Shown piece after piece: positions 7,269 to 50,988 of a stretch of 64,000 nucleotides of DNA. This stretch comes from a virus. Taxonomy: Duplodnaviria; Caudoviricetes. Every line of letters begins with the position of its first letter. The stretch's first letter is position 1. Position numbers and translations under genes: made by a program. The stretch lies in IMG/VR virus record IMGVR_UViG_3300010885_080481, one strand, 5' to 3'. The notes beneath the pieces were generated by a model. It searched no databases. It was not told the origin of the DNA and saw nothing but the letters and a program-made list of their open reading frames with translations.

Positions 7269-7481
7269 ATGAATGATATTTTACGCCGCTACATCGTAGA
7301 AGTTATTAAGACGGATTCCTTGGTAGACGAGGATGAAGAAAATTCAGAATCAGACGTCAACGAATTTAGCGGCGTTGCATCCATTGCAGGTTTCACTGCA
7401 CCTCTAGGCATGTCTGGTCAAGATATGCAAGGTCCTGGGGTCAAAGAGAGAAAAAAGAAGAAAAAGTCGACTTGGAAATGA
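7269..7481 (+). CDS. Small hypothetical protein with shared N-terminal peptide
   Basis: MNDILRRYIVEVIK...; preceded by ATAGTTA 7256-7262. Confidence 0.6.
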   Translation: MNDILRRYIVEVIKTDSLVDEDEENSESDVNEFSGVASIAGFTAPLGMSGQDMQGPGVKERKKKKKSTWK

Positions 7482-7482
7482 C

Positions 7483-7791
7483 ATGAAACGTCTGATCCTA
7501 CCTTACTTTTCTTTGTTCGTTTTAGGGGTTCTAGGGGCTCATATAACAAAGAAAGTTCAAAGTGGAACTTTTCCTATATGGGCCACCATAGGGCCTTCTA
7601 TCTTCAGTGGTGTGCTGTGGGGGTGGATTGCACAGAGATCACAGAGTCTTAGCCTCATGTCTGTGCTCTTTGATGTCGTTTATACGGCCGCGTTCGTTTT
7701 TGGTTTTTTTCTCTTAGGAGATAGACTCACACCTCTTCAGATTGCAGGATTCGTCGTGTCACTCATCGGTGTCGTAATGATGGCAGCTTGA
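7483..7791 (+). CDS. Small DMT/SMR-like membrane protein
   Basis: 102 aa with about four hydrophobic helices; C-terminal 'FFLLGDRLTPLQIAGFVVSLIGVVMM' is the DMT signature region. Confidence 0.6.
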   Translation: MKRLILPYFSLFVLGVLGAHITKKVQSGTFPIWATIGPSIFSGVLWGWIAQRSQSLSLMSVLFDVVYTAAFVFGFFLLGDRLTPLQIAGFVVSLIGVVMMAA

Positions 7792-7896
7792 TTCACACTA
7801 TCGTGATATTTATATTGTCGACTTGATCGGCGCGGAATCGGGTTAGGAAGAGGCAAAAATGCAAGACCTACTTTTGTTCTGTCCTGAAAGGACATC

Positions 7897-7926
7897 GTGC
7901 AAAGATTACTCAACGAATGTTAGTTT
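7897..7926 (+). promoter_or_regulatory. Putative early/middle promoter GTGCAA-N18-TAGTTT
   Basis: One of six GTGYAA-N18-TAnnnT sites; upstream of the SSB gene. Confidence 0.55.
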
Positions 7927-7933
7927 GATACAA

Positions 7934-8051
7934 CTCTTTCGTTGCAGGTTAGGTTGACAAACACTCGGATTGATAAGCTCGATCGCTTATGACACGGTGT
8001 CATAACATCGAAAATTGAAGTCGAAAGAGGAAGCGGAATAGGAAAACAAAA
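7934..8051 (+). promoter_or_regulatory. Structured 5' leader of the SSB gene
   Basis: CTCTTTCG 7934-7941 pairs with CGAAAGAG 8022-8029. Internal hairpins ATAAGC/GCTTAT (7973-7990) and TTATGACAC-G-GTGTCATAA (7987-8005). Confidence 0.45.
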
Positions 8052-8891
8052 ATGGCAATTGATCTAGAAGCAATTAAGCGTCGTGTTGCAGAGCTCAGTG
8101 GCGTGAGGAAGACGTCGTCCGTTCAGATGTGGAAGCCACAAATTGGAGAATATAAGATTCGCTGTCTGCCTTGGAAGAATTCTCCTGAAGGCCAGCCTTT
8201 TGCAGAGAGGTGGTTTTACTACATCGGAGAGAATGCAGGCCTCCTTGCTCCAAATCAGTTTGGAAAGCCAGATCCAATCAACGATCTGATCCGTAAGCTG
8301 TACAGCAGCGGCAAGCCTGACGATCGAGTTCTTGCAAAGAAGCTTGCGCCTAAGATGCGTTGTTATGCCCCCGTCATCGTCCGCGGTGAGGAGGATAAAG
8401 GTGTGCAGGTCTGGGCTTTCGGTAAGATCGTCTACCAACGTATGCTTGGTTTCTTCCTCGATGAGGAGGTCGGCGATATTCTAGATCCAAATCAAGGATT
8501 TGATTTGAAAGTGACGATCTCAAAAGCCCCCGGTAAACAGTTCAATGATACGATGGTGGATCCTGCTCGACGACCTTCAAAGCTTCATGAGGATCAAAAA
8601 ACCATGGCAACTTGGCTGGAGAATATTCCAAACATCGATGACATGTATCGTCTAAAGTCCACTCAAGAGATTGAAGCTGTTCTCAACAATTGGCTCAACG
8701 GTGGTGCTACTGATGACACACCAACAGAGACAACCCGTGGTCCAGCCACAGCAGATGCTCTTGATGACTTGGTTGCTGAAGTAAAAGCCTCATCGCCAGA
8801 CAAACCAAAGAAAGTAAAGAAAGCTGATGATGACTCTCCAAAGAAACAATCATTAGATGATGCGTTCGCAGACCTGATGGGCGACGAGTGA
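8052..8891 (+). CDS. Single-stranded DNA-binding protein, T4 gp32-like
   Basis: 'WKP...YKIRCLP...PF...DPI...VIVRGEEDKGVQVWAFGKIVY...DILDPNQGFDLKV' with an acidic tail 'LDDAFADLMGDE'. Confidence 0.8.
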   Translation: MAIDLEAIKRRVAELSGVRKTSSVQMWKPQIGEYKIRCLPWKNSPEGQPFAERWFYYIGENAGLLAPNQFGKPDPINDLIRKLYSSGKPDDRVLAKKLAPKMRCYAPVIVRGEEDKGVQVWAFGKIVYQRMLGFFLDEEVGDILDPNQGFDLKVTISKAPGKQFNDTMVDPARRPSKLHEDQKTMATWLENIPNIDDMYRLKSTQEIEAVLNNWLNGGATDDTPTETTRGPATADALDDLVAEVKASSPDKPKKVKKADDDSPKKQSLDDAFADLMGDE

Positions 8892-8898
8892 TTTAACT

Positions 8899-15645: not shown

Positions 15646-15909
15646 ATGAAATTTAATCTTAAAGATATAAGGAAAATGGTCAAAGAAGAATATTCTAGGG
15701 CTATTCCTGAGTTTATTGTTAAACAAGCCGTAGAATCTTGTGTCGAAGACTTAAAACGTGTAATGGTCAACCACATTAATTCAAAATCTAACTCTCAGCA
15801 GAGCAGACAGAAGATGATAGTAAGAATGAACCTGAACCTTGAAGAGTTGGAAAAGGAATTAAAGAATATTGTTGACGAGAAAATTTCAAAGTTTTTATCA
15901 GAGATTTAA
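15646..15909 (+). CDS. Hypothetical protein with shared N-terminal peptide
   Basis: MKFNLKDIRKMVKEEY... Confidence 0.6.
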   Translation: MKFNLKDIRKMVKEEYSRAIPEFIVKQAVESCVEDLKRVMVNHINSKSNSQQSRQKMIVRMNLNLEELEKELKNIVDEKISKFLSEI

Positions 15910-18908: not shown

Positions 18909-18939
18909 AAGCGAGGATAATTTATCCTCGCTTTTTTTT
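18909..18939 (+). terminator. Intrinsic terminator
   Basis: AAGCGAGGATAA / TTATCCTCGCTT stem plus T-run. Confidence 0.8.
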
Positions 18940-18989
18940 AGACAATTTGGTCTTTAACAGCTAATTACTAGTACTATCACGGGGAGATT

Positions 18990-19594: not shown

Positions 19595-20020
19595 ATGTCG
19601 CCTGAAAAAGAAAAAATTCTTTGTGAAAAGTATCCAAAGATTTTTAAATCTAGTCAACACAATGATGAACCTATCGAGATGTGGGGGTTCGAATGTAATG
19701 ATGGTTGGTTTGAATTGATTGATACTTTGTGTAACAAAATCCAATCTCATGTAGATTGGAGATCTAAAAATCTTCAAGACGCAAGTGAGCTTGAGGATTT
19801 GCAGGTCAAGGCTGAACAAGTGAAAGAGAAATTTGGAGGTCTTCGTTTCTATGTATCACGTGGAGATGATATCATTGATGCATTCATTTCTTTCGCAGAG
19901 ACAATGTCTATGAAGATCTGCGAAACCTGCGGCCAACCAGGACAACAAAAAAATGTAAGTGGCTGGATACATACTGCCTGTGATCCATGCTTTGAGAAAA
20001 GAGCGTGGAGAACAACATGA
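19595..20020 (+). CDS. Conserved phage protein with C-terminal Zn finger
   Basis: 'WGFECNDGW...QVKEKFGGLRFY...ICETCGQPG...GWIHTAC'. Confidence 0.65.
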   Translation: MSPEKEKILCEKYPKIFKSSQHNDEPIEMWGFECNDGWFELIDTLCNKIQSHVDWRSKNLQDASELEDLQVKAEQVKEKFGGLRFYVSRGDDIIDAFISFAETMSMKICETCGQPGQQKNVSGWIHTACDPCFEKRAWRTT

Positions 20021-20787
20021 AGAAAGTTGAGTTTAAAGATGGACTTGCTATTAATGGCGATTCTTCTTCAAGAGATACACTTGAAGAAGTTAAAGCGTGG
20101 CTAGGCGAAGCAGGAGGTGTACCTCTAGTTGCAACCGATCCTCCTTACGGCAACATTGTTATGCAGGAATGGGATCGGGTAAAAATGACTGATGATCAAT
20201 ACGCCGACCATATGATCCAATGGACTCGATTGTGGTCGGAAGTTTTACTTCAAGGAGGAGCATTCTATGTCTGGGGAGGTATTGGACTTCCTAATTTCAG
20301 GCCTTTTATCAAGTACCTCACACGTGTTGAAGACGATAACTTTAAGATGGCCAATCTCATTACCTGGTCAAAGAAGCGGGCATATGGAGTCCAGAACAAC
20401 TATCTCTTTACGCGTGAAGAACTCGCCTACTTCATCAAAGGAAATCCAAAGAAGCCCTTGAAGTTCAACATACCATTGCTTGAGACAAAGCGAGGTTATG
20501 CTGGATACAATGAAAAGTATCCAGCCAAGAGCGAATTCTATCGTCGGACCAACGTGTGGATGGACATCAACGAGATATTCAAGGGAAAGCTTCATCCCAC
20601 TCAGAAAGCAGAAAGAGTTGTTGAGATTCCGATTGAAGTCCATACAGATCCAGGCGATGTTGTAATTGATCCGTTTGCCGGCAGCGGTGCAACTGCTTTC
20701 GCCGCTAGGAAGTTAGGCAGGAAGTTTATCGTTATTGAAAAAGATGAAGAGATCTTTGAAAAGATGATACAACGCCTTGTCGATTAA
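20017..20787 (+). CDS. Amino-DNA methyltransferase (m6A/m4C, beta class)
   Basis: Motif IV 'TDPPYG' precedes 'HPTQK' and motif I 'VIDPFAGSG'. Confidence 0.85.
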   Translation: MKKVEFKDGLAINGDSSSRDTLEEVKAWLGEAGGVPLVATDPPYGNIVMQEWDRVKMTDDQYADHMIQWTRLWSEVLLQGGAFYVWGGIGLPNFRPFIKYLTRVEDDNFKMANLITWSKKRAYGVQNNYLFTREELAYFIKGNPKKPLKFNIPLLETKRGYAGYNEKYPAKSEFYRRTNVWMDINEIFKGKLHPTQKAERVVEIPIEVHTDPGDVVIDPFAGSGATAFAARKLGRKFIVIEKDEEIFEKMIQRLVD

Positions 20788-20811
20788 AAATATTCTAAAA
20801 AAAGATAAACT

Positions 20812-21645
20812 ATGAAATTAGCATGGGCAACGGACATTCATTTAGACTGCGTAGGCGATGTACCAGAGAAGGTTTCGTTGCTTGCAAAATCTTCAAATAA
20901 TTGTGAGTCTTTGATCATAACAGGGGATATTACAATTGCCCCATTGTTGATACAACACCTACAACTTATAGAAAGTATCCTACAAAAACCTTTTTATTTC
21001 GTGCTTGGAAACCACGATTATTATTTTTCAGACATTATCTCGACACGTCAGAAGGTTGCCCAGGCATGTAATTCGTTGTCTTTTGCAAGATATCTTGCTA
21101 CAGTTCCTTACATCAGAATAAAACGAGATGTAGCTTTGGTAGGACATGATGGGTGGTATGATGCGTTGAATGGTAACTACAATAACAACGAAATTTTAAT
21201 GAATGATTGGATCAGGATTTCTGACTTTTCAGTTGCAATGAGAACTGTCTCTAATTCTCAGGTCATCAATAAAGAAGTCATAGTTCGAATAGCAAGAGCC
21301 ATTTGTCAAGCTTCGGTGAACCACGTTGCGAATGGGATCAAATCAGCGATTCGTGATAAAAATTCTTGCATAGTCGTAGCTACTCACGTTCCTCCATTCA
21401 AAGAATCTTACAACAGCGAAAAATACAATAATATAAATTTCTCTTCAGTTTTACCTTGGTATACATCTAAAACTATGGGAGATATGTTAATGAAAGCTGC
21501 TAAGACGTATCCTCACGTAAAGTTCGTTGTTCTTTCTGGACATGCTCATAGTCATTACGATGAGGATCTTCTTAACAATTTAAACGTTCGAGTAGGAAAA
21601 TCTGCATATGGATCGCCACAGATTGCGGGGTACGTCGATATTTAA
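20812..21645 (+). CDS. Calcineurin-like metallophosphoesterase
   Basis: 'TDIH', 'TGD', 'GNHD', 'THVPP', 'SGHAH'. Confidence 0.85.
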   Translation: MKLAWATDIHLDCVGDVPEKVSLLAKSSNNCESLIITGDITIAPLLIQHLQLIESILQKPFYFVLGNHDYYFSDIISTRQKVAQACNSLSFARYLATVPYIRIKRDVALVGHDGWYDALNGNYNNNEILMNDWIRISDFSVAMRTVSNSQVINKEVIVRIARAICQASVNHVANGIKSAIRDKNSCIVVATHVPPFKESYNSEKYNNINFSSVLPWYTSKTMGDMLMKAAKTYPHVKFVVLSGHAHSHYDEDLLNNLNVRVGKSAYGSPQIAGYVDI

Positions 21646-21664
21646 AATTCAGAGAGGTTCATAC

Positions 21665-22195
21665 ATGAAGAGAGCGCTTCTCTTGAATTTTAACGGTGAA
21701 CCATTACAGTTCATAGACGGCCCACGAGCCATTAAACTGATGTTGAAAGGAAGAGCAGAGGTCGCTTCTGGTATGACAGGAGAACCTTGCTTTTGGGATG
21801 AAACAATTGCTACACCTTCATCCAAATTTAGACTGCCAGCAGTTCTTCGATTGAAGTACTACGTCAACAAAAGGACGTATAAAAAGCCTGCTCGATTTCA
21901 AAAGAAAGTTTTATTCAACAGAGACGCGTGGAAATGTCAGTATTGTGGTGTCGAATTAAATTATTCTGCTATTACAGTTGATCACGTTTTTCCAGCTTCT
22001 CGTGGTGGCAAGACTACATGGAAAAATTGCGTAGCTGCTTGTAAACTATGTAATAACAGCAAAGGTAATAAAACCCCTGAGGAAGCAGGTATGAGGTTAT
22101 TAAAGCAGCCTCATGAACCGACCACGCTACATTACTGGGATCTAAATAAAACTTCTACGTGGTATGACGATTGGAATTTATTTGTAATAGCATAA
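21665..22195 (+). CDS. HNH endonuclease
   Basis: 'CQYCG...TVDHV...GGKTTWKNCVAACKLCNNSKG'. Confidence 0.9.
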   Translation: MKRALLLNFNGEPLQFIDGPRAIKLMLKGRAEVASGMTGEPCFWDETIATPSSKFRLPAVLRLKYYVNKRTYKKPARFQKKVLFNRDAWKCQYCGVELNYSAITVDHVFPASRGGKTTWKNCVAACKLCNNSKGNKTPEEAGMRLLKQPHEPTTLHYWDLNKTSTWYDDWNLFVIA

Positions 22196-22268
22196 TTTTT
22201 TGCTTCTCCCGTCGTTTCGCGTAGTAATATAAGGATTACGTAATAGTTATGACAGGAGCTTTGTATTC

Positions 22269-23357
22269 ATGCGTCTAAGAATAACAGACCTACAAAAAAT
22301 TGTCGAGCAGACAATTCAAGAAAAGCAGGCAATTGATAGTTTTTGTGAGGAAATAAAGAAAGCGTTCGGCCCAACAGTTATTGTTTCCAACACGCTAGAG
22401 TCTCTTGTAGAGCAAGCAAATTATCGTTTGGATGTTCTAGAAAGAACAGGCCGAGAGTCTTACATACCTTTTTCTTCAAAGATTGCATTGTCGCTGTCTT
22501 CGCACAAAGATCCAGAAGTTAGACGTTTAGTTGTCAGGTTGCTTCCTGAACATGCTGCTGTCAGCTTCATTAAGGATAAAGACTCCAAGGTGCGCGCCGC
22601 GGCCGCAAAAAAGTCTCCTTTAAAGTTAGTAGAAAGCGTGGCAAAGATTCATAGGGACGATGATCTTTTGCAAGACGTACTATTTCAAAAGCGTCTTGTC
22701 GAAGAAAAGTCTGCCTTTACCCAAGCTCAGCAAGGACCTCAAGATGAAGATGAATTTTTGAGTGATTGGTGGTATGAAAAAACAGCTCGTCAATTGATTC
22801 AAGATTATGGCCGGACTTTAGATACAACATGGGTACCAGCAGCAGTAAGTCAGGTTTGTTCCAATAGATCAGTCAATAGATACAACGTTGATCCTTATAA
22901 ACTGATGAAAGTCGTTGTGAAGATCCTTGCAGATCGTGATTCAGAGAAATTTGACAGGTTGGAGAATGCTCAGGTAGTTATAAAAGAATCTGCAAATGCT
23001 TCGTTCATAGGTGAAAATGAAATGACAGATTTAGTATCTGAGCTGTTAGAATCTAAACTGTCTCAGAGTGAGTACTTACATCGAGCAGATGTCATATTCG
23101 GTATCAAGTATGCTTTGATTCCACCCGGCATAAAGAAGCATACTTTAGGTGAAGTTAAGACTGGCAATGTTGAAGTTCCAATCGTGGGTTCTTTACCGCA
23201 TTTACTTTCCCCTCGTTTCGTAGATGAGAGAGCTTTGGATACTTACGTTAACTATTGGAATTCTCGTCAATCATTAAAAGGTGAACCCTACAAGTTGTCA
23301 TGGACTTCTCACGTTAGTTCCCAAAATAAAATTAATTTTCACCTGGAGTTGAAATAA
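22269..23357 (+). CDS. Putative virion-internal protein with shared N-terminal peptide and short HEAT-like repeats
   Basis: MRLRITDLQKIVEQ...; 'KDPEVRRLVV', 'KDSKVRAAAA'; ATAGTTA at 22243. Confidence 0.6.
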   Translation: MRLRITDLQKIVEQTIQEKQAIDSFCEEIKKAFGPTVIVSNTLESLVEQANYRLDVLERTGRESYIPFSSKIALSLSSHKDPEVRRLVVRLLPEHAAVSFIKDKDSKVRAAAAKKSPLKLVESVAKIHRDDDLLQDVLFQKRLVEEKSAFTQAQQGPQDEDEFLSDWWYEKTARQLIQDYGRTLDTTWVPAAVSQVCSNRSVNRYNVDPYKLMKVVVKILADRDSEKFDRLENAQVVIKESANASFIGENEMTDLVSELLESKLSQSEYLHRADVIFGIKYALIPPGIKKHTLGEVKTGNVEVPIVGSLPHLLSPRFVDERALDTYVNYWNSRQSLKGEPYKLSWTSHVSSQNKINFHLELK

Positions 23358-23914: not shown

Positions 23915-23921
23915 GGGATAT

Positions 23922-24392
23922 ATGAAACTAACAGCTTCAAAATTACGACAAATTGTTAGAGAAGAAGTCAGTCTTGCAAAATCAGAAGATTCAACCAGAT
24001 TTTTACATGGATCAGATTCAGGTCATCCGATGGACGATGAAGGATACATGGCAAAATCGCAAATCGCTTCTTTAAAAGAAATGGCAACAGAAGTTTGTGA
24101 TCTTCTTAACAATGAAGATCAATTACCAGGTTGGGTTCAAAGTCACATCGCAGTAGCACATGAAAATCTTCAACAGGTTCATGGATATCTAATGGGCGAT
24201 GAAAAGATGAGAAGCCAACACCAACCTCAAAGCATGATGCCTCTTGTTCCAGAAAGTTTCAAACGCTTCAACAAACTCGCCGAAGGGCACAATAGAATTA
24301 CAACTCAAGAAATTGAAGAGTGGAAAAAGGGGAATTGGGGATTTCTTGAAGAAGATTTGAATGAATCTTCAAAAGATGATGAAGATTACTGA
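23922..24392 (+). CDS. Hypothetical protein with shared N-terminal peptide
   Basis: MKLTASKLRQIVREEV...; core 'DEGYMAKSQI...QLPGWVQSHI'. Confidence 0.65.
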   Translation: MKLTASKLRQIVREEVSLAKSEDSTRFLHGSDSGHPMDDEGYMAKSQIASLKEMATEVCDLLNNEDQLPGWVQSHIAVAHENLQQVHGYLMGDEKMRSQHQPQSMMPLVPESFKRFNKLAEGHNRITTQEIEEWKKGNWGFLEEDLNESSKDDEDY

Positions 24393-35906: not shown

Positions 35907-35914
35907 GGAATTTT

Positions 35915-36481: not shown

Positions 36482-36485
36482 TTTT

Positions 36486-36953
36486 ATGGATTTTAATAGA
36501 CATTTGCAAAAGCTTGAAGTTTTTATGAAAATGTGTAAAGAACTTTCAACGCTTTCGTATGATGAAAAGTATAAGGTGTCTTCTATTATTATCACTTCTG
36601 ATTATAGAGAAGTTTGTGCAATAGGATACAACGGAAGCTATAAAGGTGGTCCTAATCAAAGAAGTTCTTTAGAACATGGAGGGTCTGGATTTTTACATGC
36701 AGAAGAAAATGCCTTGTTCCACCTCTGCAAACCATACGAACTTAGGAACAATTTGCTAATGTTGTGCACACACAAACCTTGTTCTATGTGTGCGAAAAGA
36801 ATAGTAAATAGTGGAATACAAAAAATAGTTTTTGATATTGATTATGTTGATCAAGAGGCGTCTGCTGACCAAATATTCCAAGTCAGCGGTACGAAATGTA
36901 TAAAGTATCAAGACTTAATTTCTTTTCCTCAAATCTTGTTTGCGTCTAACTAA
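36486..36953 (+). CDS. dCMP deaminase family
   Basis: 'IGYNG', 'HAEENA', 'THKPCSMC'. Confidence 0.85.
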   Translation: MDFNRHLQKLEVFMKMCKELSTLSYDEKYKVSSIIITSDYREVCAIGYNGSYKGGPNQRSSLEHGGSGFLHAEENALFHLCKPYELRNNLLMLCTHKPCSMCAKRIVNSGIQKIVFDIDYVDQEASADQIFQVSGTKCIKYQDLISFPQILFASN

Positions 36954-36987
36954 CGTGATAATTACTATACAGCTCTAGGTATAATTC

Positions 36988-37281
36988 ATGAAGAAATTAT
37001 CAGAAAAAGAAATTATCCGTTTAATGCGAGAAGAATGGATTAAAAAAGTCAATGGATTGTTGTCTGAAAAAGCAGAAAAAAATTCAGACAACTTAAAAAT
37101 GCTGGCAAGAGTGAACGGAAAAGAAAAGTTAGTGATCTCTCCAGATCTAAAAGTCGAAAAGGACAATTTTCTTTATACTGTGGTCAGCGTAAATGAAAAA
37201 GAAGTTACTTTAAGAAAACCTTCTGGCGAAGAATTCACTATCACGTCAAAAGAGTTTGAAGAAGAATTTGAAAGAGAATGA
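36988..37281 (+). CDS. Hypothetical protein with shared N-terminal peptide
   Basis: MKKLSEKEIIRLMREEW...; ATAATTA at 36958; beta-rich C-terminal half. Confidence 0.6.
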   Translation: MKKLSEKEIIRLMREEWIKKVNGLLSEKAEKNSDNLKMLARVNGKEKLVISPDLKVEKDNFLYTVVSVNEKEVTLRKPSGEEFTITSKEFEEEFERE

Positions 37282-37294
37282 TGGAGTTTGCATT

Positions 37295-38035
37295 ATGAAC
37301 AAAAACAATAATGATAAAATTGAATTAGATAACATCTTAAAAAGCGTGGTCAAGAACTCCATCGCCAAGCACGCTCCTGTTTCGCAACTTCAAGAAGTTG
37401 CTGATGATTCAAATTCTTTAAAGGAAGCATACGTAGCTGAACCTAAAGTTTTTAAACAGGTAACAGAGTTTGTTACCCAAAAAACCAAAAGTGCTCATTA
37501 TGATCTTTACAAGGGTTATACTGAATCTTTGACTAAAGTATCTGCCAAGCTAGATTCTGTCAATAGACCAGATGCAAATCCTAGAAGTTCTGAATACGCT
37601 TCATTGAAAAAAGATGAAGTTTATAATCTAAATGCAACATGGTTACATGAATTATATTTTGCTAACTGTTTTGACCCACATTCAGAAATTACTATGGATT
37701 CCATGTCTTATCTCAGGCTTGAGAGAGACTTCGGCACATTCGAAGATTGGCAACGAGATTTTATTGCCTGTGCATCAGCTGCAGGAGTTGGTTGGGCTGT
37801 TTGTGGATATCACATGTTCTTACAACGGTATGTTAACACGTTCGTCGGTCTGCACGATCGGAATGTGATGCTAGGGTTGTATCCAATCATGGTTGTAGAC
37901 ATGTGGGAACATGCTCATAGAGATTATCTTAATGATAAAAAGAGCTACATAGTTTCTCAAATGAGAGAAATTAATTGGAATGTAGTAGAAGAGAGAGTAG
38001 TTAAAGCAGAACAGATAGCGCAGGCGTTGAAATGA
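37295..38035 (+). CDS. Fe/Mn superoxide dismutase with N-terminal extension
   Basis: All four metal ligands seen: 'AHYDLYKGY', 'WLHELYF', 'DMWEH'; also 'GWA'. Confidence 0.8.
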   Translation: MNKNNNDKIELDNILKSVVKNSIAKHAPVSQLQEVADDSNSLKEAYVAEPKVFKQVTEFVTQKTKSAHYDLYKGYTESLTKVSAKLDSVNRPDANPRSSEYASLKKDEVYNLNATWLHELYFANCFDPHSEITMDSMSYLRLERDFGTFEDWQRDFIACASAAGVGWAVCGYHMFLQRYVNTFVGLHDRNVMLGLYPIMVVDMWEHAHRDYLNDKKSYIVSQMREINWNVVEERVVKAEQIAQALK

Positions 38036-38583
38036 AGAATAAGAAGCAAACGTCCATGACAGCAGGTCTACTTCGTAGGATTATTGCTGAAGAGATAAAA
38101 AAGGTCATTCTAGAATCCCCAGAAAAAGAACTGAAAGAAGATTCTGTGGATTTACAAATAGATTCTTATTTCGTTGACTATGAATCAGAAGCTAAGAGGC
38201 TTAAAGCTGAAGGTACAGATTTTCGTAGGTTGACTCGTCAATTTCTGCTAGAGGCGGAAGATGATAAAGAGTCTAAGGAAGACAAGAAAGATTCTGCGGA
38301 CAAGAAAAAGCTGTCTGTTGAGGACATAGATTTAGAAAATTTTGCTGTTGGTGTGGTAAGGCTTATCGATAATTACGATTCTTTACTTGAAATAAAGTTG
38401 ACGATAGCAAAAAGAGCTACAAATTTCTTATTAAAAAATTATGATGCTTTAACCGCTAAGGAATTTAAGGAGATTTTATCAGAACAGTTTGATATCTTCG
38501 TAGATCACCCAGAACAAGCAGATGAACCTTATCTAGCACCTCCTGCCGACAGAGCTTTAGGTCCATCGGGGGGTGCGACTTGA
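38032..38583 (+). CDS. Hypothetical protein with shared N-terminal peptide
   Basis: 'GLLRRIIAEEIKKVILES'; several LxE-A/S sites. Confidence 0.6.
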   Translation: MKNKKQTSMTAGLLRRIIAEEIKKVILESPEKELKEDSVDLQIDSYFVDYESEAKRLKAEGTDFRRLTRQFLLEAEDDKESKEDKKDSADKKKLSVEDIDLENFAVGVVRLIDNYDSLLEIKLTIAKRATNFLLKNYDALTAKEFKEILSEQFDIFVDHPEQADEPYLAPPADRALGPSGGAT

Positions 38584-38915
38584 TAAGAACTGATATTTTA
38601 CATGATAGAAAGTGTATTCATGTAAAACTCAAAAAAGACGTTCATTTAAAATTAAGAGAAAAATTATTTGCCTATCAACTTTCTATACAAGCTGTATTTG
38701 ACGAATTTGCTCATCATATCGTAAATGATGAAAAAAAAGCTCTAAAATTTTTAGAAGATCTCGCCATAAAAAGAGCACAAGCAGAGCTTGATAAACCTAC
38801 TAAGTCTAGAATAATAGCAACTAAAGAGCGTGTCGATGAACTAGATCATAACACGCTTTATAATATGATTAATGCAGAAGAAACAAGAGCAAGAACAAGA
38901 AAAAACCCTATTTGA
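38580..38915 (+). CDS. Hypothetical protein (possible ribbon-helix-helix N-terminus)
   Basis: 'KCIHVKLKKDVHLKLREKL...SIQAVF' pattern; TTG start overlapping the previous stop. Confidence 0.45.
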   Translation: MIRTDILHDRKCIHVKLKKDVHLKLREKLFAYQLSIQAVFDEFAHHIVNDEKKALKFLEDLAIKRAQAELDKPTKSRIIATKERVDELDHNTLYNMINAEETRARTRKNPI

Positions 38916-39162
38916 CGTAATTGCAGATAGATTAATAAATTCGTCTAGCATGTTTGTGTCATTGACTAAAGAAACCTTAGCTTTAGCGAAAGAAGTGAAA
39001 AAGTTAAAAGAAACAGTAACATCTCTCATACAAGCTGTTCAAATTCAGCAAACATTTATAGATGAATTAATGGAACTTCATGATAATTCAACTGCTGCTA
39101 CGAAAAGCTTAAATTCAACTTTAATTAGCAAAAAAAATGATAAGAATGAAAAGCCGAATTAA
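38872..39162 (+). CDS. Hypothetical coiled-coil protein
   Basis: Heptad-like 'LAKEVKKLKETVTSLIQAV'. Confidence 0.5.
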   Translation: MQKKQEQEQEKTLFDVIADRLINSSSMFVSLTKETLALAKEVKKLKETVTSLIQAVQIQQTFIDELMELHDNSTAATKSLNSTLISKKNDKNEKPN

Positions 39163-39565
39163 ATCTGAGACTTATGCTTTTTTTCAAAAGTTTTGGTTAA
39201 CTTGCAAAAAAAACTGGGGTTATTTTGTTGCTGCTTTTGGTGTTGCTATTACTTTTCTTTTCTTAAAGAAAGAAAAAACTTCTTTGCTTGATCAAATAAG
39301 CGTAATTAGAGAATCTTATGAAGATCAAATAAAGCAGATTGAATTAGCTCGACGTGAAGAAAGAGAAAAGAATGCTAAGGCGTTAGAGCTTCTTCAAAAA
39401 AGACTCGACGAAGTCCAAAGACAATACGAGAAAGCTAAAATAGAGCTTGATAAAAAGAAAAAAGAAGAAATAAAAGAATTGATGGAAAAATATTCTAATG
39501 ATCCTGATGCTCTAGCTAAAAAGCTTTCTGAGGCAACTGGATTTAAGGTAATTTTACCGGAGTGA
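39137..39565 (+). CDS. N-terminal TM plus coiled-coil protein (i-spanin-like architecture)
   Basis: TM 'WGYFVAAFGVAITFLFL' followed by a long charged coiled coil. Confidence 0.5.
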   Translation: MIRMKSRIKSETYAFFQKFWLTCKKNWGYFVAAFGVAITFLFLKKEKTSLLDQISVIRESYEDQIKQIELARREEREKNAKALELLQKRLDEVQRQYEKAKIELDKKKKEEIKELMEKYSNDPDALAKKLSEATGFKVILPE

Positions 39566-40095
39566 TCATGAAGAAAATTTTAGCGATATTGATTAGCACT
39601 TCTATATTAGTTCAATCTTCTTTATCATATGCAGATGAACTTACGAAACCTAGTATAACTGCGCTGGTAGAAGAAGTAGCCCCAGAAGTTCCAAAAGCTG
39701 AAAAAGACGTAGGAGCCTCTTTGTCACCATTAAAGAAATTTCAGCTTGCTCCTTTCACAGGTGTTTTATTGTCTCCTCTAGCAGTTTCCAGTCTTATCGC
39801 GGAATTGAACGCAAAATCAGAAGAAATTAAAATTGAGGTGAATAAGGCCAAAGCCGAAACCAAAGTTAATTTTGAATATGAAAAAAGCATCTTACAAAAC
39901 AGTTGTACCGCTGACAAAAAAGTTATAGAGGCTAATTTGATTAACCAACAAAAGCAAATAGCTTCATTAGATGCAGCTTTACGTGCTGAAATTGAATCAA
40001 GACCAAATCCCGTAGGATGGGCGATTTTAGGATTAGCTGCAGGTGTCGTCGTTGCAACCGCAACGGCGTCTGTAATAGTTGCAGCAGGTAATTGA
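39562..40095 (+). CDS. Signal peptide, coiled coil and C-terminal TM protein
   Basis: 'MKKILAILISTSILVQSSLSYA' ... 'GWAILGLAAGVVVATATASVIVAAG'. Confidence 0.55.
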   Translation: MIMKKILAILISTSILVQSSLSYADELTKPSITALVEEVAPEVPKAEKDVGASLSPLKKFQLAPFTGVLLSPLAVSSLIAELNAKSEEIKIEVNKAKAETKVNFEYEKSILQNSCTADKKVIEANLINQQKQIASLDAALRAEIESRPNPVGWAILGLAAGVVVATATASVIVAAGN

Positions 40096-40454: not shown

Positions 40455-40480
40455 CAACTTGATAGTTATCAGAGATAATC

Positions 40481-41452
40481 ATGAAGCAAGTTATTATAGC
40501 AGAATCAGCGTTACGAGAAATTTTGCGAGAAGAAATGAGTTCATATCATTCAGATTCTCAACCTTCAGTAACGATGCCGGTCAACGTTAATCCCGTTGTG
40601 GCACCTGATGCTCCTGAAGTAGACTCTACTAATGACAATTTTATTCCAAAGAATAAAACAGAACTTTTGTCGGCTCTACGGATGTTGTGTAATGTTAATG
40701 ATGATGAAGTTCCTGAGGTTTATATAACAATAAAAGATTCGTTGCAAAAGCAAGAGGAAAAAATGGGCAAAAATGACGTCAAAGAATCAATAAGACTCGC
40801 TGTAAGAAAGATGCTATCTGAAATTTCTGCGAGTGAAAAAAAGCAAGCTGCAGCTGATAAATTGTGGAGCGAGCTACCGCAAGTGGATCCTTCTAAGTAT
40901 CCGCCTGTTACCAAAGTACCTGCTGGGGCTTCTGCCCTCGGTGGCGAACCTGCTGAGAAAAAAGCAAAGTTTGAAAAGAACAAAGCACAGCTTCAAAAAA
41001 CTTTTCAAACCATGAAAATGTCTGATATCGAAGAAGAAGAACCAGCAAGTTCAGAGCCTGAAGCAAGAAAAAATGTAATGATGTCTGACGTCGGTGGAGC
41101 ATCGTTCAAGGAGATTGCTAAAGAACTAGGATTTGCAGCAGAATCAGGCGCAAAGCAAGCCGTTGAAAAAGCTCTTGCAAAAGCCAAATTTATTACGACA
41201 ATGGATCTCCTCAATCCAGAAGAATTAGAAATAATAGTGTTACAGACCATGTCTGATTACATAGATTTTCTAAAGAGCTCCGGTGAACTTGACGCAGAAG
41301 AAGTTAAAATGTTGAAAAACAACCCAGGCGTAGTGAAAGAGCTTGATGGGTTTAGAGAATTTCTAGACAAGAACTTACGAAAAGTGAAAAAAACAGCAGA
41401 AGGTTCTTCAGCTGTTGAAGAATCTGTTGTTAAAGTTCGTAGAAAGAAGTGA
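40481..41452 (+). CDS. Protein with shared N-terminal peptide and sigma70-region-4-like HTH
   Basis: 'SALREILREEM'; 'ASFKEIAKELGFAAESGAKQAVEKALAKAK'; ATAGTTA at 40462. Confidence 0.55.
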   Translation: MKQVIIAESALREILREEMSSYHSDSQPSVTMPVNVNPVVAPDAPEVDSTNDNFIPKNKTELLSALRMLCNVNDDEVPEVYITIKDSLQKQEEKMGKNDVKESIRLAVRKMLSEISASEKKQAAADKLWSELPQVDPSKYPPVTKVPAGASALGGEPAEKKAKFEKNKAQLQKTFQTMKMSDIEEEEPASSEPEARKNVMMSDVGGASFKEIAKELGFAAESGAKQAVEKALAKAKFITTMDLLNPEELEIIVLQTMSDYIDFLKSSGELDAEEVKMLKNNPGVVKELDGFREFLDKNLRKVKKTAEGSSAVEESVVKVRRKK

Positions 41453-41455: not shown

Positions 41456-42217
41456 ATGTTCGTACAATCTGCTCCTGTTGTTGCAGCTGTTCAGTTCGAT
41501 CCAAAGATTCTTGAAGTTCATGAAAATTTGGCGACAGCTCGTTCTCTTGCTTTTGAAGCTGCAGCAAAAGGAGCAGCTGTCGTTGTTTTACCTGAACTGT
41601 GTATAAGCGGATATACTTTAAGGGACTATAAAGAAGCCGCTGAATGTTCTCAAACAAAGAGCGGGTATCAGACGGAAGCTTTTCTTACAATCGCAAAAAA
41701 TTGTAATTGTCATATTATTTTTGGGTATGTTGAATTGTTAGAAGGAAAGCTTTATAATTCTGCTGCTGTTGTAGGCCCTTCTGGATTAGTAGCTAATTAC
41801 CAAAAACACAATTTGTGGGCTAATGATTACTTGTGGGCTGAACCTTCAGAGTCTGTAAATCCTGTTGTCACAACTCGCGCAGGTCGATTAGGAGCTTTGA
41901 TTTGTAGAGATTCTCTTAACAATTATAGAGAATCATATAAATTCTACAAGCCGGATTTCCGATTTTATAGGCAAGGTTCAGTAGATACGATAGCATTATT
42001 AACGAACTGGTCAGGTCAAATTACCCACCCAGATAATTCTTGGGTAGAGCTTGCAGAACAGACTAACTCTAACGTTATTGTTTCTAGCAGAGTTGGTAAA
42101 GAGAGAAATTTGAAGTTTAATGGAGGATCTACGATAATAGATAAAAAGTTGAATGTTTGGACTAACGGATCTTCTTTCACCGAAGCCGCTGTCGTTGGAG
42201 GAACGGTTATTCTATGA
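41456..42217 (+). CDS. Carbon-nitrogen hydrolase (nitrilase superfamily)
   Basis: Catalytic triad context 'VLPEL', 'YQKHNL', 'LICRD'. Confidence 0.85.
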   Translation: MFVQSAPVVAAVQFDPKILEVHENLATARSLAFEAAAKGAAVVVLPELCISGYTLRDYKEAAECSQTKSGYQTEAFLTIAKNCNCHIIFGYVELLEGKLYNSAAVVGPSGLVANYQKHNLWANDYLWAEPSESVNPVVTTRAGRLGALICRDSLNNYRESYKFYKPDFRFYRQGSVDTIALLTNWSGQITHPDNSWVELAEQTNSNVIVSSRVGKERNLKFNGGSTIIDKKLNVWTNGSSFTEAAVVGGTVIL

Positions 42218-42997: not shown

Positions 42998-43165
42998 ATG
43001 CAGGACGAAAAAGAAAATTACAATTTTGATAAATTCATGGATGATATTTTGATCAAAGAGTCTAAAAAGAACCCTGAACTTATTGAAGAAACCCCTCAAA
43101 GAAAATACGCGAAAAAATACACAGAACGCTCGGCAAATAGAGTTAAATTTGTGAAGGTGAAGTGA
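42998..43165 (+). CDS. Small protein (55 aa) absent from the ORF track
   Basis: MQDEKENYNFDKFMDDILIKE...; CTAATTA 42975 and AGGAG RBS; its stop overlaps the next ATG. Confidence 0.6.
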   Translation: MQDEKENYNFDKFMDDILIKESKKNPELIEETPQRKYAKKYTERSANRVKFVKVK

Positions 43166-43647
43166 TGTCGAAACCGAATGCGACAATAGCTAATGGAAAG
43201 TCTCTTCGAGAATTTTTAAGCGCAGTGATCGATGATTCTCTACGTAAAAGGATCGTAGAAGGAGAAGATGAAGAGAAGCTGTCTTCAGGTAAGATCGAAG
43301 TAAAAGATGTGATAGAAAAGTTAAACATCATTCGATCTGGTAAATCGCTGAAGGATGAAGAGGTTAAAAAAGGCATGGAAGATTACATGAATGATCTTGA
43401 TGATGCCGAAAAAACTGCCTTGTTTTCATTCTTAAAAGGTATATCAGAAATTATTACTGTAGGTACTCCAGGAGAGGAAGCGACTGAGCCAGCCGAGGGT
43501 CCTGCAAAAGTAACGATGGAAAAGAAACCTGGAAAACAAAAAGTTGGTGTAAAACCTAATGTGATTAAAAAACCTGGCGAAGATAAAGAAAAGAGTGCTA
43601 CTTCCGTAGAAGACACGACTCCTCCTATAAAAGCAACTAAAAAATAG
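43165..43647 (+). CDS. Hypothetical protein with shared N-terminal-type peptide
   Basis: 'KSLREFLSAVI...RIVEG'. Confidence 0.55.
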   Translation: MSKPNATIANGKSLREFLSAVIDDSLRKRIVEGEDEEKLSSGKIEVKDVIEKLNIIRSGKSLKDEEVKKGMEDYMNDLDDAEKTALFSFLKGISEIITVGTPGEEATEPAEGPAKVTMEKKPGKQKVGVKPNVIKKPGEDKEKSATSVEDTTPPIKATKK

Positions 43648-44638: not shown

Positions 44639-44881
44639 TTGACAGAAGAAGAAGCAATAGATGAATCTCTAAACTTTGTGGCAAGATATACCTCCAGTGT
44701 ATCCGATTGGATTACTATAAAAAAAGAACTTCTTAAGTCTTTGCCCCCTCAATATAGGAAACGTTTTTCGACAAGAGATCCTGTCACTAAAAAACAATCG
44801 ATGAACGATTTTGAAATATCCTTGTCTAAAAAATGGGAAAGCATAACAGGAAAAAAGTTGATATTTAATGGCCATGAATAA
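44639..44881 (+). CDS. Hypothetical protein
   Basis: TTG start abutting the previous stop. Confidence 0.5.
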   Translation: MTEEEAIDESLNFVARYTSSVSDWITIKKELLKSLPPQYRKRFSTRDPVTKKQSMNDFEISLSKKWESITGKKLIFNGHE

Positions 44882-47152: not shown

Positions 47153-48391
47153 ATGAACGATAATCGATTTCAAGGAATAGTTCGTAACTACACTGAGCAA
47201 GACGTAAGAAAGCTTCAGAACACGTTAAAGGTAGAACATACCTTGGCTAATCATGGAGCGCAGAAGCTTTGGAAGCTTATTAATTCCGAGCCATACGTTG
47301 CAGCCTTAGGAGCTCTCACGGGCAATCAGGCGGTGCAACAGGTCAAGGCAGGTCTCAAGGCTATCTATTTATCAGGATGGCAGGTAGCCGCCGACGCCAA
47401 CCTTGCCGGTGAGATGTATCCTGATCAGAGTCTCTATCCCGTCAACAGCGTTCCGTCTGTCGTTAAGCGTATCAACAATGCGCTTCTACGTTCAGATCAG
47501 ATCGATAACTCTGAAGGTAAGACCGGTACCGACTGGTTTGCACCAATTGTTGCCGATGCCGAGGCTGGTTTTGGTGGACCACTCAATGCATTTGAACTTA
47601 CCAAGGCTCTAATTGAAGCCGGAGCCTCAGGCGTCCATTTTGAGGATCAACTAGCCTCTGAAAAGAAATGTGGCCACATGGGAGGCAAGGTGCTCGTCCC
47701 AACTTCACAGTTCATCCGTACGTTGACTGCAGCACGTCTGGCCGCGGATGTTATGGATGTTCCAACCGTCATTATCGCCAGGACGGACGCAGATTCAGCT
47801 AGCCTCATTACCAGCGACATCGATCCATACGACAGAGACTACATCCTCGATGGCGACAGGACCCCTGAAGGATTCCATAGGCTGTGCCGAACAGGGCTTG
47901 AACGTTCGGTGGCTCGCGGTCTAGCATATGCTCCCTATGCAGACATGCTCTGGATGGAGACTTCAACCCCCGACCTGGAGCAGGCCAAGCTCTTCGCCGA
48001 GGCCATTCACAAGAAGTTTCCAGGAAAACCCCTAGCCTACAATTGCTCACCCTCATTCAACTGGAAGAAGAACCTCGATGACTCAACCATCGCTAAGTTC
48101 CAACGAGAGCTCGCCGCCATGGGCTATAAGTTCCAGTTCGTCACCCTTGCCGGCTTCCACTCGCTCAACCACTCCATGTACCAGTTGGCCCATGGTTATA
48201 AGGATCGAGGCATGGCAGCCTACTCTGAACTACAACAGGCTGAGTTTGCAGCTGAGAAGATCGGTTACACGGCCACGAAACACCAGCGAGAGGTCGGCAC
48301 CGGTTACTTTGATGCAGTCTCTCAGGTTATTTCTGCCGGTAATTCATCCACGTTGGCGCTTCATGGATCGACTGAAGAAGAGCAATTTTAA
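47153..48391 (+). CDS. aceA: Isocitrate lyase
   Basis: '[11 protein letters not shown]', 'YPDQSLYP', 'DAEAGFGG', 'HFEDQ', signature 'KKCGHMGGK', 'ARTDA', 'YNCSPSFNW', '[11 protein letters not shown]'. Confidence 0.97.
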
Positions 48392-48986: not shown

Positions 48987-48987
48987 A

Positions 48988-49170
48988 ATGAAGCTCGTTA
49001 AAGGAATTGATTATTTTTTGGAAAATGACCGAATAGTTTTCACTCGTGAGTTTTTGTTAAAACGAGGGTATTGTTGCAATTCTCGTTGCAGAAATTGTCC
49101 GTATACTGAAAAAAAAGTGAAAAATGACTCTGCGGAAGAAGTCACTGTGCAAATTCCTAAAAATTCCTGA
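48988..49170 (+). CDS. Small Cys-rich protein (DUF5522-like)
   Basis: 'DYF...IVFTREFLLKRGYCCNSRCRNCPY'. Confidence 0.65.
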   Translation: MKLVKGIDYFLENDRIVFTREFLLKRGYCCNSRCRNCPYTEKKVKNDSAEEVTVQIPKNS

Positions 49171-49182
49171 TACCATGTTGGT

Positions 49183-49764
49183 ATGGGTATTGGCAAGATC
49201 GACCTGTCTGAAGCTAGTTCTATCGCAAGTTCTGTCTTGAAATACATTCAACCTGCCTTGACCAAAGGCGAAGTTGCTGGATCAATCCGCCGCCATAAAG
49301 AAATTGTCGGCGATGTTGAGATCGTTGCGATGAGCGATAACAGAGAGCTTCTTGTCAAACTCCTGGCCGACGTTGGTCAGCACATCAAGCCTGGTGTGCC
49401 GGGCCTAGTTCCTTGGGCGCCGAAGGTCGATGCCAAGTATTTTCGAGTTCGTTTGAATGAAGGCATGAATCTCGATCTCTTCATGGCATCTCCTGAGAAT
49501 TGGGGAGGGCTTTTGTTGATGCGAACTGGTTCTGGCGCCGGACTAGATGGTAATTCTTTCAACGGTTTCACACCAGGTATTTTTTCTCGTTGGAAGAAGC
49601 TTTCAGGTGGCGGCCGCATGACGAACTGCATGCCAACGATGCCCACTGGCGAACAACTGTGGATTCCGGAAGAGCAGGACTTTTTTGATCTTCTCGAGAT
49701 GGATTTCGTTCCTCCTGTCGAACGAGTTTCGAAGGCTGCGATCAAGAAATATATTCGCAAATGA
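49183..49764 (+). CDS. DNA polymerase X-like nucleotidyltransferase (palm/thumb only)
   Basis: 'AGSIRRHKEIVGDVEIV', 'LDLF', 'RTGS', 'EEQDFFDLLEMDFVPPVER'. Confidence 0.75.
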   Translation: MGIGKIDLSEASSIASSVLKYIQPALTKGEVAGSIRRHKEIVGDVEIVAMSDNRELLVKLLADVGQHIKPGVPGLVPWAPKVDAKYFRVRLNEGMNLDLFMASPENWGGLLLMRTGSGAGLDGNSFNGFTPGIFSRWKKLSGGGRMTNCMPTMPTGEQLWIPEEQDFFDLLEMDFVPPVERVSKAAIKKYIRK

Positions 49765-49790
49765 ATTTGAGAGCAATATTTAGTCATGCT

Positions 49791-50537
49791 ATGAAATTGG
49801 CTGTCTTCGATCTTGATGGTACTTTGGCAGAAAGCAAATCTCGTGTAAAGCCAAACATGGTTGATAGCTTGAAGAAGCTTCTTGCCAAGCATGATGTTGC
49901 AGTGATTTCCGGGGGTGCGTGGCCGCAATTCGAATCTCAGCTCGTGAATCAACTCGGACTTTCGTCAGACGAATCCCGGCGCTTACACCTATTTCCGACG
50001 TCAGGCACCAGCTTCTATAATAACCATGATGGTAAAAAGTGGAACAGGGTCTATTACGAAGGCCTCACTGACGAAGAAGTCAAGAAGATTATGTTGGCAT
50101 TTCGTGTCGTTCTTGATAACCCAGGCGTAAAGATGCCAACAAGATTTTGGGGGGATCAGCTAGAAAATCGAGGAACTCAGATCACATTTTCTGCCATGGG
50201 CCAGCTTGCGCCCGTCGAGGAGAAGAAAAAGTGGGATCCTTCTTTCTTCAAACGTTTAATCCTTATAGAAAAGCTGATGCAGCATCTACCTGAATTTGCG
50301 CTTAAAGCAGGCGGTTCTACATCCATTGACGTTACGCGCAAAGGCATTGACAAAGCATACGGTATCGCACAGATGGAAAAGCATCTAGGGATCCCAAGGA
50401 AAGAGATGCTATTTATTGGAGATGCAATTTTCCCAGGAGGAAACGATTATGCCGTTCAAGAGGCAGGCGTCAAATGCATCGAGACATCTGGACCTGAATT
50501 CACTATTCAAATCATTGAAGAAATTTTGAAGAGTTAA
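49791..50537 (+). CDS. HAD-IIB hydrolase, phosphomannomutase-like
   Basis: 'FDLDGTL', 'VISGG', 'ENRG', 'GGSTSIDV', 'DKAYG', 'GDAIFPGGND'. Confidence 0.8.
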   Translation: MKLAVFDLDGTLAESKSRVKPNMVDSLKKLLAKHDVAVISGGAWPQFESQLVNQLGLSSDESRRLHLFPTSGTSFYNNHDGKKWNRVYYEGLTDEEVKKIMLAFRVVLDNPGVKMPTRFWGDQLENRGTQITFSAMGQLAPVEEKKKWDPSFFKRLILIEKLMQHLPEFALKAGGSTSIDVTRKGIDKAYGIAQMEKHLGIPRKEMLFIGDAIFPGGNDYAVQEAGVKCIETSGPEFTIQIIEEILKS

Positions 50538-50568
50538 GAATAAATAGGACAAAAGGAAATCATTCATC

Positions 50569-50988
50569 ATGAAGATACGTCTCGGAGACCTCAGAAGAAT
50601 TATCAAAGAAGAAGTTGAAATGTCTGCGATCCCTTCGGTTGAAAATCTTGAAAAAGAAATTGGACCTCACTACAACCTCGTAAACGTTCAAGGCATGGAC
50701 CCAGCTTATTTGGATTCAGCAAAGAGCGCTGCAAAAAGCTATTATGATTTTCTTGCCAAGGTAGAAAAAGAGTATGGAAAGGCCGGCCCAATCACAGGCA
50801 TGCTATCCAAGTTTTACGAATTTTCGAAAATCTCTGCTGTTGATGCTCAAAAGAAATTCGACCTCCTCAAACAGCTGCGTGATGATAGAGCATCTCAGGC
50901 ACAAATGAAAATGAAAGCCGGACGTCACCCTGGCAGTGATGATTATGCCACGCCGATGCCCGGCGGCGGATTTTACACGGGTGATTGA
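50569..50988 (+). CDS. Hypothetical protein with shared N-terminal peptide
   Basis: MKIRLGDLRRIIKEEV...; ATAAATA at 50540. Confidence 0.65.
   Translation: MKIRLGDLRRIIKEEVEMSAIPSVENLEKEIGPHYNLVNVQGMDPAYLDSAKSAAKSYYDFLAKVEKEYGKAGPITGMLSKFYEFSKISAVDAQKKFDLLKQLRDDRASQAQMKMKAGRHPGSDDYATPMPGGGFYTGD

Follow-up and report, generated by a model that had tools for sequence, protein, structure and literature searches.

How do more than a dozen proteins with unrelated bodies come to start with the same short peptide, and what might that peptide do? The question is raised by the DNA analysed here (the window), the whole 64,000-nt stretch of the IMG/VR virus record IMGVR_UViG_3300010885_080481, in which 13 of the ~96 called proteins, encoded between positions 7,269 and 50,988 and all on the + strand, begin with a shared leader. 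A preliminary description had read this leader as an address tag that loads cargo into the prohead of the phage. As set out below, the leader tag is real, N-terminal, modular and conserved across the lineage. Judged by sequence comparison, it is probably a lineage-specific version of the capsid-targeting sequence (CTS) of phage T4, longer and more basic, and with a much larger cargo set.

By its gene content the window belongs to a large T4-lineage phage, with a gp32-like single-stranded-DNA-binding protein, a RecA/UvsX homolog, a piece of a family-A DNA polymerase and a phage lysozyme; a DNA methylase, an IMPDH/GMP-reductase-fold enzyme, a superoxide dismutase, an isocitrate lyase, a NUDIX hydrolase and a CN-hydrolase are also encoded. 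No near relative was found among 50,697 deposited phage records (megablast of positions 20000-40000; tblastn of a 1175-aa protein), and the nearest cultured phages by capsid protein, Flavobacterium phage immuto (43%) and Microcystis phage Mel-JY01 (35%), are both distant. IMG/VR gave no match to an exact 60-mer of the window, but many relatives were found there. One of them, a 278-kb contig (G001), is collinear with the window at ~80% nucleotide identity in conserved genes and was kept out of profile building.

An N-terminal leader shared by unrelated proteins

Translation confirmed the N-terminal peptides of the preliminary description at all 13 positions, and its statement that the bodies behind them share nothing was borne out by body-versus-body BLAST, in which the best pair reached E = 0.003 over 47 low-complexity residues. 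The same comparison rules out that the 13 tagged proteins are paralogs. A loose regular expression, [LIVM]..[IVLM][IVLM][KREAQ]E[ED], matched nine times in the window proteins, eight times at residues 8-17 and once internally. A leader profile was built from the alignment of the 13 window leaders (A1) and run over the whole window in six frames. Its best 14 matches were the 13 leaders and a second occurrence close to the C-terminal end of the 15646 protein (nt 15847; proteins and families are named by the first position of their gene), and no other site in the window scored at least 7 bits. The set of leaders first listed is therefore complete.

On the proteome of G001 the profile gave 25 matches of at least 6 bits; 20 shuffled proteomes averaged 0.3, and the reversed proteome had none. 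Of the 25 matches, 23 fall in the N-terminal 30 residues, for which 13% would be expected (binomial p = 1e-18); the motif is far commoner at N-termini than internally. With the Met-Lys columns removed, the core-only profile found 15 N-terminal versus 2 internal matches in G001. Three further relatives (G002-G004, each 59-61% complete) gave 10-14 matches, and immuto and Mel-JY01 gave none. Each conserved hydrophobic position of the leader is encoded by 7-8 different codons, and the DNA upstream of the 13 genes is dissimilar from one gene to another. Selection thus acts on the peptide and not on the DNA, and a DNA-level cassette is largely ruled out.

The modular nature that had been claimed for the tag is borne out at slot 50569, which lies just upstream of the homolog of gene 51030. 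In the three genomes compared there (the window, G001 and a third relative, L107), the leader reads MKIRL-x-(D/E)-L-(K/R)-x-I-I-(K/R)-E and is followed by three bodies without similarity to one another. This matches the pattern of the internal-protein loci of T-even phages, which encode diverse proteins with the CTS alone conserved (PMC3012670). Between the window and G001, the median identity of tagged proteins is 47%, versus 75% for the 45 genes of that region that lack the tag (Mann-Whitney p = 9e-6).

Anatomy of the leader and candidate cut sites

When 36 leaders of the window and of G001 were anchored at the first conserved Leu (position 0), information peaked at M(-7), K(-6), I/L(-5), L(0), R/K(+1), I(+3), I/V(+4) and E(+6), and fell to background level after +8. 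The Glu at +6 is the most conserved single position, with 2.75 bits. The short form, of 15-16 residues, has the consensus M-K-(I/L)-x4-L-(R/K)-x-I-(I/V)-(K/R)-E-E. A long form, L-R-x-(Y/F)-h-x-x-h-I-x-E (h, hydrophobic), is found in five window genes and has one extra helical turn in front of the same end. In 13/13 window proteins the leader core starts at residue 5-19. The leader-bearing open reading frames (ORFs) are as follows.

7269..7481, + strand: leader ORF, 70 aa; long form MNDILRRYIVEVIKTD, with Thr/Asp at the usual Glu position; 15.5 bits
15646..15909, + strand: leader ORF, 87 aa; leader MKFNLKDIRKMVKEEY; 22.6 bits
18990..19499, + strand: leader ORF, 169 aa; leader MKLTKNQLQNIIKEEY, then M-S-E-A and L-E-E-G; Ala/Gly/Lys-rich body
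22269..23357, + strand: leader ORF, 362 aa; leader MRLRITDLQKIVEQTIQEK; leucine-rich-repeat-variant (LRV)/HEAT-like repeats in the body
23922..24392, + strand: leader ORF, 156 aa; leader MKLTASKLRQIVREEV; acidic body
36988..37281, + strand: leader ORF, 97 aa; leader MKKLSEKEIIRLMREEW; 26-nt overlap with the downstream superoxide dismutase gene
38032..38583, + strand: leader ORF, 183 aa; core LLRRIIAEEI at residues 13-22, then V-I-L-E-S
40481..41452, + strand: leader ORF, 323 aa; leader MKQVIIAESALREILREEM; predicted disordered linker and helical body
43165..43647, + strand: leader ORF, 160 aa; long form SLREFLSAVIDD at residues 13-24, with Asp at the usual Glu position; 9.4 bits
43841..44110, + strand: leader ORF, 89 aa; long form ILLEYVKLILEKK, then I-R-E-A; basic body, pI 9.9; 9.6 bits
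44868..46022, + strand: leader ORF, 384 aa; long form KLLREYVRRIIKEDY at residues 11-25; Gly/Ser-rich basic body; 20.6 bits
48678..48986, + strand: leader ORF, 102 aa; long form SILRKFIKNVILEA, ending I-L-E-A; 15.7 bits
50569..50988, + strand: leader ORF, 139 aa; leader MKIRLGDLRRIIKEEV; hypervariable slot

The leader ends in [LIVMF]-x-E in 11-12 of the 13 proteins, the exceptions being 7269 (Thr/Asp) and 43165 (Asp); the G001 ortholog of the latter reads ...FLSEIIKES. By direct reading, with no predictor, the leader departs from the pattern of a Sec/Tat signal peptide, since charges at +1, +2, +5, +6 and +7 break up the hydrophobic positions.

Further sites of the type [LIVM]-x-E-[ASG] had been reported soon after many leaders. 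VMSEA, ILEEG, VILES, IREA and VILEA are indeed present, LLEA occurs at residue 72 of the 38032 protein, and LSEI is found in the first 80 residues of no called protein, its only place being the C-terminal end of the 15646 protein. Such sites are conserved in family 18990 (M-x-E-A and x-x-E-G) and are not general. Conservation in this family is highest over residues 1-44, a propeptide-like region, with L8, I11, I12, E14, E15, M28, E30, A31, E43 and G44 invariant, and the Ala/Gly/Lys-rich body drifts. The I-x-E that closes the leader itself is a more general candidate cut site than those downstream.

The proteins behind the leader

Searches of the 13 tagged proteins against Pfam and PHROGs gave nothing above the curated cut-offs. 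The weak matches below them were to HEAT, Sigma70_r4_2, phrog_32745, phrog_23353 and phrog_645; the one to phrog_32745 (function unknown) belongs to the 23922 protein.

Two large families show how firmly the leader is kept. In family 22269 it is present in 42/42 full-length homologs, down to 31% identity, with M1 and L8 invariant and E18, within a T-(I/V/L)-x-E motif, nearly so. Residues 73-126 of the 22269 protein match the leucine-rich-repeat-variant structure PDB 1LRV by profile (E = 2e-14); the remaining fold is unmatched, and a Foldseek search with its AlphaFold2 (AF2) model against PDB and BFVD gave nothing at E <= 0.001. Family 40481 is widespread in metagenomes, with 208 homologs, and an N-terminal h-x-x-h-h-x-E occurs in nearly all full-length members among the matches listed. 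The scores of its members against the window profile fall to zero despite this kept pattern, which is missing from a few members only, all of them truncated calls on ~1 kb contigs. The body contains a weak helix-turn-helix (HTH) resembling sigma-70 region 4, matched by Pfam in 4/36 family members with a best E of 1e-5; a PDB profile search with the family gave nothing significant, so that the likeness stays weak. The AF2 model of the 40481 protein, a weak one (36-sequence alignment; mean predicted local distance difference test, pLDDT, 67), places a leader helix at residues 8-20, followed by no regular structure up to residue 58 (pLDDT <50 at 20-38) and then by the helical body. This predicted arrangement fits a detachable tag. 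A motif N-P-V-V-D-P-S-A-A-x-T-D-P is strongly conserved after the leader of this family.

The remaining proteins are conserved to varying degrees in G001. The 43841 ortholog is 83% identical, that of 44868 aligns only over residues 8-162 (35% identity), and the 7269 protein has no BLASTP match in the called proteome of G001, where the syntenic position has a leader match in an 81-aa open frame. The 38032 protein may in fact start at residue 9, where there is an in-frame Met. The second leader-like motif of the 15646 protein (10.7 bits) stands at its C-terminal end (15847-15909), and the G001 ortholog (49% identity) keeps both motifs, the C-terminal one weaker. In G001 the motif is also seen at the extreme C-terminus of one other ORF (32765-33181, - strand) and internally in another (36456-36827). 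In T4, Alt has a C-terminal propeptide as well.

Some neighbouring features were recorded. A G+C-rich inverted repeat with a T run, terminator-like, lies at 18910-18960 just upstream of gene 18990 and suggests that this gene has its own transcription unit. An Fe/Mn superoxide dismutase gene without a leader (37256-38035) sits between leader genes 36988 and 38032, an arrangement that G001 keeps without the overlap. Auxiliary metabolic genes are interspersed among the tagged ones: an IMPDH/GMP-reductase-fold enzyme (24432-25520), a CN-hydrolase (41456-42217), an isocitrate lyase (47153-48391; E = 6e-100) and a phosphomannomutase-like HAD hydrolase (49761-50537). Beside the lysozyme gene, 56905-59139 (- strand) encodes a 744-aa protein that may be a fibre or spike and that has numerous weak matches of repeat type (bactofilin, pentapeptide, shufflon N-terminal region, Big_15).

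Head module and prohead protease in relatives

The T4-type prohead serine protease, Peptidase_S77 (PF03420), scores above the Pfam cut-off in 5/5 long relatives; in G001 its gene is at L091:11581-12189, on the - strand. In G001 the head module runs from terminase, portal, a 289-aa protein, the protease and proteins of 141, 85 and 164 aa to a 634-aa Glu-rich protein, a gp23-type capsid protein and a 265-aa protein, with one of 108 aa farther along. Four of these small proteins carry the leader at the N-terminus: the 141-aa and 85-aa proteins between protease and capsid gene, and the 265-aa and 108-aa proteins downstream of the capsid gene. Their leaders, >100 kb away, were matched by the profile made from the window leaders alone. 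The 634-aa scaffold-like protein is homologous to the scaffold-position proteins of immuto and Mel-JY01, and has 18 [LIVM]-x-E-[ASGNDT] sites. In T4, the places of these leader-bearing proteins are taken by the core proteins gp67 and gp68 and by the scaffold gp22.

The capsid protein of G001, aligned with T4 gp23 and with the capsid proteins of immuto and Mel-JY01, has an L/I-x-E-(S/A)-N between the ENQ helix and the VRR motif, the region in which T4 gp23 is cut. This placement suggests that the protease of the lineage may have kept L/I-x-E specificity. The N-terminus of the same protein, MKSFTIDQLAQGIKE, is leader-like by eye; it was unscored by the profile, so it is not claimed as a leader. 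A second protease gene, of the ClpP family (E = 5e-27), is found in G001 at 21166-21768 (L093:1166-1768) with ATA[TGA]TTA upstream.

A promoter-like motif shared with morphogenetic genes

Six leader genes had been placed directly behind a late motif or a variant of it. With the motif defined as an exact ATA[TGA]TTA within 45 nt upstream, the number is five.

7256..7262, + strand: ATAGTTA promoter-like motif, 13 nt upstream of 7269
22243..22249, + strand: ATAGTTA promoter-like motif, 26 nt upstream of 22269
36958..36964, + strand: ATAATTA promoter-like motif, 30 nt upstream of 36988
40462..40468, + strand: ATAGTTA promoter-like motif, 19 nt upstream of 40481
44861..44867, + strand: ATATTTA promoter-like motif, 7 nt upstream of 44868

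The motif thus precedes 5/13 tagged versus 7/83 other genes in the window, and 9/23 tagged versus 29/357 other genes in G001 (Fisher p = 1e-4). When 20 same-letter permutations were tested, ATA[TGA]TTA alone was associated with leader genes. In G001 it also stands upstream of the tail-tube gene and of the third tail-sheath paralog only (identified by phmmer with T4 gp19 and gp18), and of a gp25-like baseplate gene, a fibre-domain gene and a lysozyme gene. These data would support co-expression of the leader genes with morphogenetic genes, insofar as the motif is a promoter, and the putative promoter covers fewer than half of the tagged genes. The T4 late promoter, TATAAATA, is absent from the + strand of the window; its two copies there are both on the minus strand and at chance level. 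The tail-sheath paralogs of G001 are three in tandem, of ~1020 aa each, upstream of the tail-tube gene (177649-187631; L099, L100).

What the leader may do

The T4 record gives the leaders of internal proteins (IP) II and III as MKTYQEFIAE, of Alt as MELITELFDE, of gp24 as MAKINELLRE and of gp22 as MLKEQLIAE, all of the form h-x-x-h-h-x-E. The conserved positions 0, +3, +4 and +6 of the present leader have the spacing of Y4, F7, I8 and E10 of the T4 CTS, and the spacing fits Alt and gp24 too. Amber-suppressor experiments on the IPIII CTS showed residues 4 and 7 to be important in targeting, and residues 8 and 10 in processing; the cut by gp21, the T4 prohead protease, falls after L/I-x-E (PMC9026906).

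On the reading that we favour, the leader would be a 15-16-residue amphipathic helix that docks a new protein to the prohead's scaffolding core during assembly. The (I/V/L)-x-E at its end would be recognised by the T4-type prohead serine protease (Peptidase_S77), which would clip the tag, in some families also just downstream, and so release the cargo within the head. Some 25 fast-evolving proteins in each genome, 13 of them from this window, would be loaded by the leader, and at least some of this cargo would enter the host with the DNA, by analogy with T4 IPI-III and Alt. Docking, cleavage, packaging and ejection are all steps that we infer. The earlier proposal of an address tag for the prohead holds as regards a modular and strictly N-terminal element, and its link to the prohead and the protease is circumstantial, being made up of the protease itself, the leaders in the head module, the CTS positions and the L/I-x-E end.

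Several observations weigh against this reading. First, the leader profile found none of the leaders of IPII, IPIII, Alt or gp24 among 65 T4 proteins. As the profile is blind to them, the likeness comes down to four positions, a pattern within reach of many amphipathic helices; it is, at the level of sequence, a likeness of pattern and not demonstrable homology. Second, the head module was read in a relative, G001, and not in the genome of the window. Neither PHROGs, searched with the small proteins and the scaffold-like protein of that module, nor phmmer with T4 gp22, gp67 and gp68 against G001 gave a match, so that the equivalence of the leader-bearing head-module proteins to the T4 core proteins is positional only. 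Third, the residue after the putative cut is mostly Glu, followed by a hydrophobic residue, where the T4 leaders read from the record have A, S or D. Two leaders have Asp or Thr in place of the Glu, and Asp at CTS position 10 allows targeting and blocks cutting in T4 (PMC9026906); by that precedent, the 43165 and 7269 proteins could be loaded and left uncut at this site. Fourth, in the AF2 model of the 22269 protein (mean pLDDT 81), the leader opens one long helix, residues 5-37, and is no detached tag. Fifth, the tagged bodies range from acidic to basic, and T4 internal proteins are described as basic (PMC9026906). Complex prediction for the prohead protease (A4) with residues 1-60 of family 18990 (A3) gave a score of 0.01, which, having been obtained without controls, is evidence neither way.

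The long helix of the 22269 model and the two leaders lacking Glu at the cut position would be natural if the leader were a prohead-core or scaffold docking helix on assembly or core components, or on virion-resident enzymes, with no delivery to the host and no need of cutting. This would also suit the leaders on small proteins beside the protease and scaffold-like genes, as the T4 core proteins gp67 and gp68 are head-internal without a known host role (PMC9026906). What makes this quite unlikely is that the most conserved position of the leader is the Glu at +6, which a pure docking helix would not need, and that hypervariable bodies and slot replacement are a better fit for effectors that face the host.

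A helix might instead dock to a hub outside the capsid, such as a phage chaperonin, the RNA polymerase, the membrane or a degradation adaptor. Such a hub would account for a pattern that is that of a generic amphipathic helix, for the failure of the profile to recover the T4 CTS proteins, and for the weak sigma region-4-like HTH in one cargo protein. It is also in keeping with the many tagged genes that lie among genes of replication and nucleotide metabolism; the T4 IP and alt genes, however, are themselves outside the head gene cluster (T4 record). Three observations would be left unexplained: the leaders on small proteins flanking the protease, scaffold-like and capsid genes, the conserved terminal h-x-E that matches the protease motif, and the association with a promoter-like motif common to tail genes. 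We therefore give this possibility a low probability.

That the leader has no shared function and is a by-product of A/T-rich early codons or of a mobile 5' cassette (promoter plus first codons) is largely refuted and can hardly be right: leaders do begin with Lys- and Ile-rich, A/T-rich codons, but the codons at conserved hydrophobic positions are varied and some contain G/C, the upstream DNA is unlike, conservation reaches codon 15-16, and the hydrophobic periodicity and the Glu persist down to 31-40% identity in two large families.

Implications

Full-text literature search yielded no account of the leader consensus, nor of uncultured T4-like jumbo phages with an enlarged set of CTS cargo, which is no proof of absence. 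If the tag works as in T4, it would provide a marker, readable from sequence, of capsid-borne proteins in widespread uncultured freshwater giant phages. Capsid-borne proteins act before phage gene expression, and are thus prime candidates for anti-defence and host-takeover functions. Examples in T4 are IPI, which blocks a restriction enzyme, and Alt, a modifier of RNA polymerase. The putative cargo set here is several times that of T4, evolves ~2x faster than its neighbours and has bodies swapped at fixed slots, so that it amounts to a natural library of candidate effectors. The leader is also a potential second, orthogonal packaging tag for engineered phage protein delivery, again provided that it works as in T4.

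A more ambitious proposal is that a lineage-wide address code fills the capsid with a rapidly exchanged arsenal of ~25 proteins, which would arrive ready-made with the DNA and would affect the host's transcription or defences at time zero. We regard this as speculative and rather unlikely. If true, the arsenal would include regulators such as the 40481 family and an LRV-repeat protein, and the leader-bearing ORFs of metagenomes would be a large catalogue of injected phage effectors.

Comparison with known systems

The phiKZ-like phages offer one comparison. In phiKZ, 201phi2-1 and SPN3US, a diverged homolog of gp21 processes the long N-terminal propeptides of head and ejection proteins, cutting at S/A-x-E (PMC5694885, PMC9026906). 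What would be alike is a set of many head-internal proteins processed after Glu by a T4-related protease, with propeptides that in the phiKZ type are inferred to target the prohead. There are also differences. Most propeptides there are far longer, with >100 residues in SPN3US gp50, gp53, gp54 and portal, and no shared short leader consensus is described for them (PMC5694885). The cut motif there is S/A-x-E, as opposed to I/L/V-x-E here, and those phages stand outside the T4 gp23 lineage. When the present leaders were compared with phiKZ/SPN3US-type propeptides (~80-250 residues, S/A/G-x-E), conservation was found to end after ~16 residues, with I, V or L at P3 in place of S, A or G.

The closer comparison is with T4 itself, in which gp21 removes the CTS of IPI, IPII, IPIII and Alt and the short propeptide of gp24. 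Like the T4 CTS, the leader is strictly N-terminal, 10-20 residues long, starts with M-K, has the h-x-x-h-h-x-E spacing and ends in L/I-x-E, and a Peptidase_S77 prohead protease is present in the phage lineage (here seen in relatives). Its carriers, too, are otherwise unrelated and fast-evolving, their genes are scattered outside the head gene cluster, and a conserved tag is combined with a replaceable body at a fixed locus. Unlike the T4 CTS, the leader has four more residues before the first conserved hydrophobic position, is strongly basic at the x positions and usually continues with Glu-Glu and a hydrophobic residue; leader and CTS are mutually undetectable by profile. There are ~25 carriers per genome versus four IP/Alt carriers in T4, and the putative cargo includes large proteins such as the LRV-repeat and HTH proteins.

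The principle of the CTS dates from 1996, from the work of Mullaney and Black (as reviewed in PMC9026906 and PMC3012670), and a 2022 review of Lindsay Black's work proposed it as a general T4-like route for loading varied proteins (PMC9026906). The concept is therefore established, and what the present leaders add to it is scale, a consensus and a lineage, not a new kind of system.

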